Shown here: in pieces, positions 38,243-40,936 of the stretch
Layout: the number at the start of each line of letters is the position of its first letter
How positions within the stretch are numbered: the stretch's first letter is position 1
Source: Escherichia coli
Lineage (GTDB): Bacteria > Pseudomonadota > Gammaproteobacteria > Enterobacterales > Enterobacteriaceae
Assembly: GCF_003334405.1 (NCBI RefSeq)
Contig: NZ_QOWM01000024.1
Direction: 5' to 3' (one strand)
DNA length: 41,323 nucleotides
The notes under the pieces: model-generated
Told to the model about the DNA's origin: nothing
The model's input: the letters and a program-made list of their open reading frames with translations, nothing else
Database searches by the model: none
Position numbers and translations under genes: made by a program

Positions 38243-40936
38243 TTATTGCTTAGTAAACGGCGCGAAGATTTCGCTAAATGCGTACTTCGGTGCCTGTTCT
38301 TTAGTCAGGCCGTGGAATTCCGGAGACAGGTTAGTGCCGCCCGGCAGGTCGCGCGCGATTGACCAGATACCAACCATACCGAGATTACGCTTCTGCGCAT
38401 CCTGCATGACCAGACGAGCATCAGAGAGATAGAACACCTCGCCCTGAACGTCGTTCACGCCAACCATCGGCGTGGTACCCATCATAGCGTCAATTTCTGC
38501 ATCGCTCTTATTGGGATGGAGGCCTTTCAATTGTGAATGCAGGTTGGCAATCGCAGACGTTGCACACTTACCGTGAATGTTCTGGCCTTCGGTATTTGCA
38601 GACTGACAAATCGCGTTACCGTAGTCCATTGTCATCACGTTCACACCCGCCAGCTCAACACCTTTCGCTTTGGCATCGCTCAGGACATTCATCCCTTCCG
38701 GCGTCAGGCCAGTCGGCAGAATTGGCAAGGTGTACCAGATAGCAATATCTTTGCCTTCTGACTTCCATTTATCCTGCACTTTCTTCACAGCAAGGTTACG
38801 ACGTTCAATAGATGCCTGATCCGCAACCCAGGTGCCTTCGATATCGAAGTCCAGGACTTTGAGGTTCAGGTTATCAACGATGTCATAATAATGCTGCATC
38901 AGATCGTCTACGTTCTTACAGGAAGCAGCCAGCGGAGCGTTGTTAGCACCACCGATAGACAGCATCACATCGCCGCCAGCCTCACGCAGAGCTTTGATTT
39001 TGCTGTACTGAGCGTAATTCTGCATACCGTAAGCGGTACCCCATGTCGGCAGACAGGTGTTCGCATCTTTACTCACCACAAACGCCAGCGTGAAGTGGTT
39101 GACGTTATGATTCTTAGCCAGCGCAGCCAGATCCGGGATCGTATTCAGCGTAAAGTCGACATACGGTGCATAAACGTGTTTCGGCCACGCTTTCTTCGGC
39201 GTACCTACGCGCTCTTTGGTTCCGGTCCAGTCAACAAAAACACGCCACGGGTTGCTGTCAGAAGGAGAAACTTTCTGCACTTTACTCTGAGAAATGTAGT
39301 TCACACCGTTAAAGCGAATCAGCGTATCGCTGGCATAAAGCGTTTCTGGATTAAACTGCGGCGCATTATTCAGCTCTTCGTTGCTATAGCTCTGAGCCTT
39401 ACCTAACGGCTTCCACGGGCGGCTATTGCTACCGGTGGCGTTTTGGTTCGCCACCAGAGCAGGGTTGTCACTTTGCGTCCAGAACAGCGCTTCATAAGCC
39501 TGCCCATCAACAACAACGCGATCACCTTTCACGTACACAGTGGATGCGGACCATGCTTTCGCCGGTTCGTATTTCTTCCACGGGTTATCGCCGCCCGGGA
39601 CAAAGCCCCATGCGTCTTGATCGACAGAAGTTTTATAATGTGCATCGTTATAATCTACGATGCTGTCCGCGCTGTACGCTTTGCTGGCCTGGAAACCATC
39701 CGCAACAATGACGCCGCCGTTATCAATTTCACAGGTAGTCGGGTTACCGTACTGACTCAATTCCGCAGCGGTAGCTGTACGCTCGAGACGCCATGGGTTA
39801 TTGGAGTTTTCAGCGCTGGTACCCCGTGGGCAATCTTTAGACCCAACCCACCAGGCGTTCTTGTAAACATTACCATTGAAAATAACATGGTAAATTTCGC
39901 TACCTTCCTGGCCGCTCCACGCTTGCAATGAGTAATCGTTAACGCTATCCGCTGGTGTTGATGGCTCGCTGTTATCCGGAGTTGGGGTCACCGGTGTTTC
40001 CGGAGTTGGATCAACCGGAGTCACAGCACCGCCATTATTATCCGGCTTAACGGAACAGGAGCCAGGGTTACCATACTGGCTGATTTCTGTTGCCGTTGCC
40101 GCGCGAACATAACGCCATGGGTTACTGGCATCGTTTTCTTTCGCATCGCCTGGGCAATTTGCCGCGCCTACCCACCAGGCGTTCTTATAAATGCCGCCGT
40201 TATAGATAACGTACCATGTAGAAGAACCTTCCTGACCTTTCCAGGCTACTACAGCATAGTTGTCGTTTGACTTATCAGCTGGGGCTGGCTGAACATCAGG
40301 AGCCGGTTTAACGTCCGGTGCCGGTTTCACATCCGGTGAAGGCTGTGGTGCTGAAGTACAGGACTGTGGATTACTGGTTTCTGAGATTTCCGTTGCCGTA
40401 GCGGCACGAACATAACGCCATGGGTTGCTGGCATCATTGCTTTTCGCATCACCCGGACAGTTAGAAGAGGCTACCCACCAGGCATTTTTATATACCGCAC
40501 CATTAAAGACGACATACCAGGTCTGACCGCCCTGCTGTTTATTCCAGGCAACTACAGAAGAATTAGACGGAACAGTGCCCTGTGCTGGTGTAGCCGAACC
40601 GCCATTAGCCGGCGTATTGGATGCAGGCGTATTTGAATTTGAAGAAGATGAGCTGCCGCTCTTTTCGCAGGAAAGTGTATTGCCAAACTGACTAATTTCA
40701 GCAGCTGTTGCGGTACGCTTTAAACGCCACGGGTTAGTTGCATCATTTGCTTTCGCTTTTCCCGGGCAATTTGTAGAAGAAACCCACCAGGCATTTTCAT
40801 AAATTTTGCCATCGAAAATAACCTGATATTTATTACCACCTTGTTGGTTATTCCATGCTTCCATTGCCAATGCTGGCAGAGCGGAACACACCAGCCCCAT
40901 ACCAATCATAGATTTAGTAAATATATTTAATTTCAT
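38243..40936 (-). CDS. chiA: periplasmic/secreted endochitinase: signal peptide, four tandem chitin-binding-type repeats, GH18 catalytic domain
   Basis: 897 aa; signal peptide MKLNIFTKSMIGMGLVCSALPALA; four repeats of the pattern W-YxVxFNGxxYKNAWWVxxxxCPG...NPWR..RxATAxE; C-terminal GH18 signatures SIGG and LDFDIEG. Confidence 0.9.
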   Translation of the reverse strand: MKLNIFTKSMIGMGLVCSALPALAMEAWNNQQGGNKYQVIFDGKIYENAWWVSSTNCPGKAKANDATNPWRLKRTATAAEISQFGNTLSCEKSGSSSSSNSNTPASNTPANGGSATPAQGTVPSNSSVVAWNKQQGGQTWYVVFNGAVYKNAWWVASSNCPGDAKSNDASNPWRYVRAATATEISETSNPQSCTSAPQPSPDVKPAPDVKPAPDVQPAPADKSNDNYAVVAWKGQEGSSTWYVIYNGGIYKNAWWVGAANCPGDAKENDASNPWRYVRAATATEISQYGNPGSCSVKPDNNGGAVTPVDPTPETPVTPTPDNSEPSTPADSVNDYSLQAWSGQEGSEIYHVIFNGNVYKNAWWVGSKDCPRGTSAENSNNPWRLERTATAAELSQYGNPTTCEIDNGGVIVADGFQASKAYSADSIVDYNDAHYKTSVDQDAWGFVPGGDNPWKKYEPAKAWSASTVYVKGDRVVVDGQAYEALFWTQSDNPALVANQNATGSNSRPWKPLGKAQSYSNEELNNAPQFNPETLYASDTLIRFNGVNYISQSKVQKVSPSDSNPWRVFVDWTGTKERVGTPKKAWPKHVYAPYVDFTLNTIPDLAALAKNHNVNHFTLAFVVSKDANTCLPTWGTAYGMQNYAQYSKIKALREAGGDVMLSIGGANNAPLAASCKNVDDLMQHYYDIVDNLNLKVLDFDIEGTWVADQASIERRNLAVKKVQDKWKSEGKDIAIWYTLPILPTGLTPEGMNVLSDAKAKGVELAGVNVMTMDYGNAICQSANTEGQNIHGKCATSAIANLHSQLKGLHPNKSDAEIDAMMGTTPMVGVNDVQGEVFYLSDARLVMQDAQKRNLGMVGIWSIARDLPGGTNLSPEFHGLTKEQAPKYAFSEIFAPFTKQ
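39780..40855 (-). repeat. four tandem domain-encoding repeats (about 180-200 bp units) plus 3 x 18-bp linker repeat inside chiA
   Basis: DNA-level similarity between units is visible by eye (compare 40030-40200 with 40370-40540); 18-bp units at 40283-40336 encode PDVKPA-PDVKPA-PDVQPA; outer boundaries approximate. Confidence 0.6.

Follow-up and report, generated by a model that had tools for sequence, protein, structure and literature searches.

The 18-bp array and its place in ChiA

The stretch of DNA under study, referred to as the window, comprised 41,323 nucleotides of an Escherichia coli genome (contig NZ_QOWM01000024.1) and carried the chiA gene on its minus strand. The product, a secreted chitinase/lysozyme of family GH18, carries the annotation 'bifunctional chitinase/lysozyme' across thousands of E. 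coli genomes in RefSeq. The GH18 catalytic domain was present (Pfam Glyco_hydro_18, PF00704; residues 609–805, E = 1.3e-9), and a search of ChiA against NCBIfam gave no family match, though PGAP names the protein. This work concerns an array of three 18-bp tandem units, located in the linker between the second and third N-terminal modules of ChiA, and the variation of its unit number among E. coli genomes. The features of the region were as follows.

38243–40936, minus strand: chiA coding sequence, an open reading frame (ORF) of 897 residues; secreted GH18 chitinase/lysozyme
40358–40549, minus strand: N-terminal module 2 (residues 130–193; 64 residues with two invariant cysteines), from the module map, the DNA repeat, and a predicted local distance difference test (pLDDT) score of about 70–83
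40247–40357, minus strand: linker 2 (residues 194–230; TSAPQPS-(PDV[KQ]PA)3-PADKSNDNYAVV), from the module map and AlphaFold2; proline-rich and predicted to be disordered
40319–40336, minus strand: repeat unit 1, CCGGATGTGAAACCGGCA, coding for PDVKPA (residues 201–206); exactly duplicated in 16 genomes
40320–40327, minus strand: first AAACCGGC 8-mer, in unit 1; end of the 18-bp deletion of the B2-type two-unit allele and of the MB51 duplication
40301–40318, minus strand: repeat unit 2, CCGGACGTTAAACCGGCT, coding for PDVKPA (residues 207–212); three synonymous differences from unit 1
40302–40309, minus strand: second AAACCGGC 8-mer, in unit 2; putative slippage partner of the first 8-mer
40283–40300, minus strand: repeat unit 3, CCTGATGTTCAGCCAGCC, coding for PDVQPA (residues 213–218); 12/18 positions identical to units 1 and 2
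40055–40246, minus strand: N-terminal module 3 (residues 231–294), from the module map and the DNA repeat; PDB match 6ogd_C

Read on the minus strand from 40336 to 40283, the array was composed of CCGGATGTGAAACCGGCA, CCGGACGTTAAACCGGCT, and CCTGATGTTCAGCCAGCC, arranged head to tail, and was translated as PDVKPAPDVKPAPDVQPA (PDVKPA-PDVKPA-PDVQPA; ChiA residues 201–218). Each unit of 18 bp corresponded to six codons in register with the chiA ORF. The three tandem units coding for (PDV[K/Q]PA)3 at 40283–40336, which had been read from the sequence in a preliminary description, were confirmed by the minus-strand reading, the frame, and Tandem Repeats Finder (TRF). The latter reported an array at 40292–40338 with a period of 18, 2.6 copies, 82% matches, and a score of 66. 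When the codons of chiA were shuffled, none of 300 shuffles reached this score and the best gave 57, which excluded a chance origin of the array. Only two TRF arrays with a score of at least 50 were present in the whole window, and both were located within chiA linkers.

The units were imperfect copies, with identities of 15/18 between units 1 and 2, 12/18 between units 2 and 3, and 12/18 between units 1 and 3 (67–83%). The longest exact identity between units in register, at an offset of 18 bp, was the 8-mer AAACCGGC. A scan of 37800–41323 against Rfam detected no RNA family at the gathering score, and the ORF list of the window held no second ORF of at least 60 residues overlapping the array. 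No mention of the PDV[KQ]PA motif was found among the papers searched, and reports on ChiA polymorphism cover point substitutions only.

The N-terminal region of ChiA contained four homologous modules, M1 (residues 27–90), M2 (residues 130–193), M3 (residues 231–294), and M4 (residues 339–402), each of 64 residues with two invariant cysteines, which were joined by the linkers L1 (residues 91–129), L2 (residues 194–230), and L3 (residues 295–338). A DNA repeat search recovered four module copies of about 180 nt in the 5′ third of chiA, of which the copies at 40082–40261 and 40385–40564, spaced by 303 bp, flanked the array. Many columns of the modules at residues 130–193 and 231–294 were invariant, whereas the linker columns between them were without conservation. 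The array formed the central 18 residues of the 37-residue linker 2, with a composition of six prolines and three alanines.

In an AlphaFold2 model of M2–L2–M3, which was built on 15 module-pair sequences and had a mean pLDDT of only 66.8, model residues 67–96 (ChiA residues 196–225, including the array) showed pLDDT values below 50 and were without secondary structure, and the modules showed values of about 70–83. The low values together with the position between two modules indicated that the array forms the central part of a proline-rich interdomain linker without structure. The module map, the DNA repeat, and the model thus all bore out the location between modules 2 and 3 that had been proposed from the sequence.

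Unit number among complete E. coli genomes

The unit number was surveyed in 5426 complete E. coli genomes using a 301-bp query around the array. The query matched 3123 genomes, and in 3121 of these the match covered 80% or more of the query. A band of 90–95% identity, as expected for an 18-bp gap, contained 47 of these matches, which corresponded to 46 variants and one partial match. Synthetic two-unit and four-unit alleles were also used as queries, with a real two-unit allele as a further query. The four-unit query matched 17 genomes as a single ungapped piece of 239 bp at 98.3–99.6% identity, and the two-unit query, in its synthetic and then its real form, matched 29 genomes as a single ungapped piece. 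Among the 3121 genomes, three units were therefore carried by about 3075 (98.5%), two units by 29 (0.9%), and four units by 17 (0.5%). All K-12 derivatives and ST131 genomes among the matches listed were three-unit, without variation.

When eight fetched loci were aligned, every unit-number variant was an exact in-frame change of 18 bp at the unit boundaries. The preliminary description had predicted length variation of the M2–M3 linker in steps of 18 bp without a frameshift; the 29 two-unit genomes, the 17 four-unit genomes, and the aligned loci agreed with this prediction, and the invariance across strains that it had named as the contrary result was not observed. At the protein level, ChiA sequences of 894, 899, and 885 residues matching the variants were present in independent NCBI, ENA, and Logan records. 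The M2–L2–M3 fragment as a protein query gave only fragments and module-fusion forms, and a full-length query was needed.

The 46 variants belonged to three kinds of junction. In strains cq9 and CV839-06, unit 1 was exactly duplicated in tandem. The 16 genomes with this duplication shared one allele, with at most one single-nucleotide polymorphism (SNP) between genomes, and the chiA genes of cq9 (12 SNPs) and CV839-06 differed from that of K-12 by 12–13 SNPs. This allele was equal to the chiA of APEC O78 plus 18 bp, with zero further differences in 2694 bp, so that the two alleles formed a clean pair of parent and derivative. Strain MB51 contained a different exact duplication, AAACCGGCACCGGACGTT, in the register of unit 2. 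Its chiA showed no SNPs relative to K-12, and differed only by the duplication and by the loss of 1 bp at gene position 2160, which caused a frameshift.

In the two-unit alleles, represented by 95-3322 and 1105, an 18-nt segment between the two AAACCGGC 8-mers was precisely deleted. They differed from K-12 by 83–84 SNPs and from Nissle by 29–30 SNPs, and their nearest three-unit relatives were 99.2% identical. The 29 two-unit genomes, isolated from dog, human, chicken, pig, and beluga, had a common B2-type allele, and most of them (at least 21) also carried an additional 15 bp in linker 1, with a gene span of 2700 bp. Three distinct junctions on three chiA backgrounds correspond to at least three independent events, each inherited clonally. 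Thus, at least three independent gains or losses of a unit, two duplications and one deletion, are recorded at this locus.

Identical variants in 16 and 29 independent complete genomes, obtained by different laboratories from different hosts and countries, make it highly improbable that the two- and four-unit alleles are sequencing or assembly artefacts of a truly invariant locus. Any sequencing read greatly exceeds the 54 bp of the array, each variant differs by exactly one entire unit in frame and is tied to a lineage background, and proteins of matching length stand in the three independent sets of records. An artefact would be conceivable mainly for MB51, a single genome with a chiA that is also frameshifted by 1 bp; repeats are notorious for assembler trouble, and some of the 796–799-residue module-fusion proteins in draft assemblies may represent collapses of short-read assembly.

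One larger change removed the array as a whole. An in-frame deletion of 303 bp (40124–40426; gene positions 511–813) fused modules 2 and 3, with a loss of 101 residues including the entire array and linker, and was placed at a 20-bp stretch common to both modules, AACCCATGGCGTTATGTTCG. Both E. coli ETEC1746 and the complete Shigella chromosome CP027027.1 carried the deletion, at identical endpoints, and the Shigella gene had an additional 1-bp frameshift. A query spanning the ETEC1746 junction matched only ETEC1746 in one piece, and partial coverage bounded the fusion alleles at about 2/3123. Many module-fusion ChiA proteins of 796–799 residues were present in the protein database, with differing crossover points. 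Like the unit-number changes, the 303-bp fusion is an in-frame change of the N-terminal array of ChiA that affects linker 2. However, it differs in scale and in its 20-bp identity inside modules of about 190 bp, and probably followed a homology-dependent route. The comparison across Shigella that had been suggested along with E. coli could be made only in this sense, because the array was wholly deleted in the one chromosome examined and the question of unit number was moot there.

An in-frame tandem repeat of varying unit number in a secreted, host-interacting protein could also be a contingency locus, which would let clones vary ChiA rapidly by reversible switching at high frequency. This reading was largely refuted, and its residual probability was very small. 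The array has only three copies, which agree at 67–83% of their positions and share no more than 8 bp of exact identity in register, and 98.5% of the 3121 genomes kept three units. Each class of variant was one near-identical allele, which indicates inheritance rather than recurrence, and variation was absent from the K-12 derivatives and ST131 genomes listed. In addition, all observed changes were multiples of 18 bp that preserved the frame, so that no on/off switch would result. The claim that the repeats are a hotspot for slipped-strand change therefore stood only in part: three events were detectable, but the three-unit state prevails in most genomes, the copies are degenerate, and the variant classes appear clonal. 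The array is a rare, ordinary in-frame repeat-number polymorphism in a disordered proline-rich spacer, and a minor instance of a well-known kind.

Age of the array, proposed slippage, and constraint on the linker

The chiA genes of K-12 type and B2 type were 66–84 SNPs apart, yet their 54-bp arrays were identical. The three-unit state is therefore older than the split between these alleles.

The observations as a whole were very probably best explained by an old tandem duplication, subsequent synonymous drift, and rare slippage by one unit in an unstructured spacer. The 54-bp array would form the central part of a 37-residue spacer joining the second and third of four homologous 64-residue modules, and would have originated when a single 18-bp unit was duplicated in tandem, prior to the divergence of the present-day E. 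coli chiA alleles. The copies would then have drifted nearly only at synonymous sites, with the peptide repeat kept and the DNA identities reduced to 5–8 bp in register. Such short identities would still permit occasional slippage during replication, independent of RecA, or a comparable misalignment of sister strands. Each event would add or remove exactly one unit; the reading frame would be kept, and the spacer would change by six residues, or about 2 nm in extended form.

The duplication of unit 1 was compatible with misalignment at ACCGGA, and the other two junctions (a deletion and a duplication) with misalignment at AAACCGGC. RecA-dependent exchange usually needs about 20–30 bp of identity. 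The identities of at most 8 bp between the units are far below this length, which favours RecA-independent slippage over homologous exchange. We infer the slippage mechanism, the role of the array as a spacer, and the near-neutrality of one-unit changes. Promotion of slippage by hairpins was also considered and rejected, as single-stranded DNA folds of the array and its flanks barely exceeded those of shuffled sequences (z = -2.0 and -1.6).

Several points weighed against this explanation. Only three events back the term hotspot, and each variant class was confined to one near-identical allele. The MB51 event came from one assembly with a 1-bp frameshift in chiA, where an assembly error is possible. 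The uniform three-unit state of all listed K-12 laboratory derivatives and ST131 genomes points to a low rate, and slippage, if any, is slow. Alleles with one unit or at least five units, none of which occurred among the proteins examined, are not reliably searchable by megablast-type queries, which split a 36-bp difference into two joined pieces with an identity value that masks the gap, and left such alleles unrankable among about 3000 genomes. Finally, a constraint on the peptide, as suggested by an excess of synonymous differences, would not be predicted for a purely passive spacer.

This excess was apparent when the units were compared with each other. Seven of the nine differences between units were synonymous, against an expectation of 26% (binomial P = 0.0017), and units 1 and 2 differed by three synonymous and no non-synonymous changes, which indicates that the peptide is under some constraint. 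The M2–M3 linkers of four orthologues from other genera (P0079, P0080, P0092, and P0097; proteins 67–76% identical) were 36, 38, 32, and 41 residues long, respectively, close to the 37 residues of K-12, and consisted of unrelated sequence rich in Pro, Thr, Ser, and Asp, without a trace of PDV[KQ]PA. Because unrelated sequences of similar length occupy this position, the constraint on linker 2 appears to concern composition and length, and not a particular motif. The variant linkers of 31 and 43 residues lie at the edges of the orthologue range of 32–41 residues, and the functional consequences of unit changes are probably small.

The conserved peptide could alternatively reflect a specific functional motif, involved in binding, processing, or rigidity, with a copy number under selection and with two- and four-unit alleles as adaptive tunings. 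The conservation of the unit peptide while synonymous sites diverged, the narrow range of linker lengths across genera, the 15-bp change of linker 1 that accompanies most two-unit alleles, and the reported adhesion of ChiA modules to host CHI3L1 (PMC11486038) would all be consistent with such a motif. It was nevertheless considered unlikely, since the motif left no trace at this position in orthologues, the linker is predicted to be disordered, the variants are rare and clonal, and the linker together with a module is missing from ETEC1746 and from Shigella (in the latter with a frameshift in the gene as well).

A related proposal, that the length of the ChiA linker is tuned and not neutral, would apply to the two-unit allele, which is usually combined with five additional residues in linker 1, and to the four-unit APEC O78-type allele. 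The two-unit allele has become fixed in one B2 sublineage, which comprises extra-intestinal isolates from dogs and humans. If length were tuned, both alleles would alter the spacing of the N-terminal modules, and the unit number would change adhesion or substrate reach. The modules, which are homologous to the protein-docking N-terminal domain of YenTc Chi2, may have CHI3L1 of the host or some other protein as their partner instead of chitin. We regard this proposal as very unlikely, and a rarely slipping spacer under compositional and length constraint remains the preferred explanation.

Related features of chiA and significance

A second tandem array was located in linker 3, and small tandem changes of length were frequent in chiA.

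39970–40018, minus strand: second tandem array, in linker 3 (residues ~306–322; PETP-type); TRF period 24, score 68

The B2-type alleles (Nissle, APEC O1, 95-3322, and 1105) were longer by 9 bp, GAAACTCCA (ETP), near 39992, which indicates that linker 3 is also polymorphic in length, between the major allele classes. In linker 1 (~40598–40642, minus strand; SNSNTPASNTPANGG), some alleles, such as P0062 and P0144, contained an extra NAPAS (+15 bp). Strain TW01221 carried a 6-bp CGGCAA duplication in module 3, which added two residues, and the same duplication was present in P0045. In APEC O1, the signal-peptide region contained a tandemly duplicated 10-bp segment, CTGGTGTGTT, which caused a frameshift, and the gene was annotated as a pseudogene.

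Any match to chiA was found in 3163 of the 5426 complete E. coli genomes (58%), and the patchy prevalence of the gene in E. coli is already known from the literature. Strain 3PT retained only the initial 61 bp of chiA, followed 16 bp later by an IS1 element, and had lost the region through bfd and bfr into the gsp operon, which was partly missing. In strain DLI.6n, chiA was interrupted by IS1A. The exact ChiA sequences of K-12, cq9, and Nissle were absent from a collection of 15 billion proteins, in which ChiA of 95-3322 was present; this pattern was taken as a database quirk.

The nature of the N-terminal modules bears on what linker 2 connects. The four modules gave no match to Pfam CBM_5_12 at E ≤ 10, and in ChiA this family was matched at residues 461–494, more weakly at residues 415–443, and nowhere else. 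When a module was aligned with the CBM5/12 region of ChiA itself by hhalign, only a Y-x-G-x-x-Y-x-x-x-W-W core was matched (21 columns, E 0.017, probability 2.6%). The top PDB sequence match of module 3 was Chi2 of the Yersinia entomophaga YenTc toxin (6ogd_C, residues 24–96; E = 6e-13), and the best fold match in Foldseek was likewise the N-terminal domain of Chi2 (9c4k_C, E 0.026). CBM5 domains (2rts, Serratia marcescens ChiB, and 2d49) ranked after Chi2, with weak E values of 0.3–3.

The N-terminal domain of Chi2 is the part through which the chitinase docks to TcA in the YenTc toxin (PMC12705794). A published account (PMC11486038), which cites Low et al. 2013, counts seven chitin-binding domains in ChiA, with the N-terminal modules as domains 1–4. 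The term chitin-binding, as applied to modules 2 and 3 in the preliminary description, therefore agrees with the naming in that account, but the Pfam CBM_5_12 matches lie only within residues 415–494. On the basis of these sequence and fold matches, the four N-terminal modules (residues 27–402; 39731–40858) may be as much protein-docking as chitin-binding.

The array shares properties with several known systems. Like the Pro/Thr/Ser linkers of glycoside hydrolases, which are general knowledge from the 'PT box' of Cellulomonas fimi CenA and Cex and from chitinases and cellulases, it is of low complexity, proline-rich, and unstructured. Such linkers also join folded modules, vary in sequence between orthologues while their length is roughly kept, and often contain short internal repeats. 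The ChiA array differs in its charged hexapeptide PDVKPA, in place of PT or PS. Linker 2 joins two N-terminal accessory modules, whereas the PT-box type joins a binding module to a catalytic domain, and a polymorphism of unit number at the population level is documented in ChiA.

The Xr repeats of Staphylococcus aureus spa (24 bp) and the R-region Ser-Asp repeats of clfA and clfB (18 bp), also generally known, are alike in that the unit is a multiple of three, synonymous sites are degenerate, the repeats code for a spacer and not a fold, and whole units slip in or out to give length differences between strains. However, those arrays have many copies and are variable enough for typing, whereas chiA has three copies, 1.5% variant genomes, and at least three events in about 3100 genomes. 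The periplasm-spanning (Glu-Pro)n-(Lys-Pro)m spacer of E. coli TonB is likewise a charged proline-rich repeat and is thought to be an extended rod that sets a distance; it uses dipeptide repeats and has no sequence relationship to the ChiA array.

The E. coli markers CVN002 and CVN007 of the Lindstedt scheme for multilocus variable-number tandem-repeat analysis (PMC8143711) also have 18-bp units and a copy number that varies between strains. An identity of the array with these markers was rejected, because none of the four primers matched the window with three or fewer mismatches; the chiA array is another locus, outside that scheme.

The practical consequences of these findings are small, and the understanding of repeat instability is unchanged. 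The length of chiA changes between lineages in steps of 18 bp (linker 2), 9 bp (linker 3), 15 bp (linker 1), and 303 bp (a module). Therefore, a classification of ChiA as 'pathogenic' or 'non-pathogenic' by residue (362, 370, 378, 388, and 548) needs an alignment and not position counts. The two-unit and four-unit alleles are usable as simple lineage markers. Identities of 6–8 bp in register would suffice, even in a degenerate repeat, for the rare gain or loss of whole units. In addition, natural versions of one linker with 31, 37, and 43 residues are available for tests of spacer length in a multi-module chitinase or adhesin.

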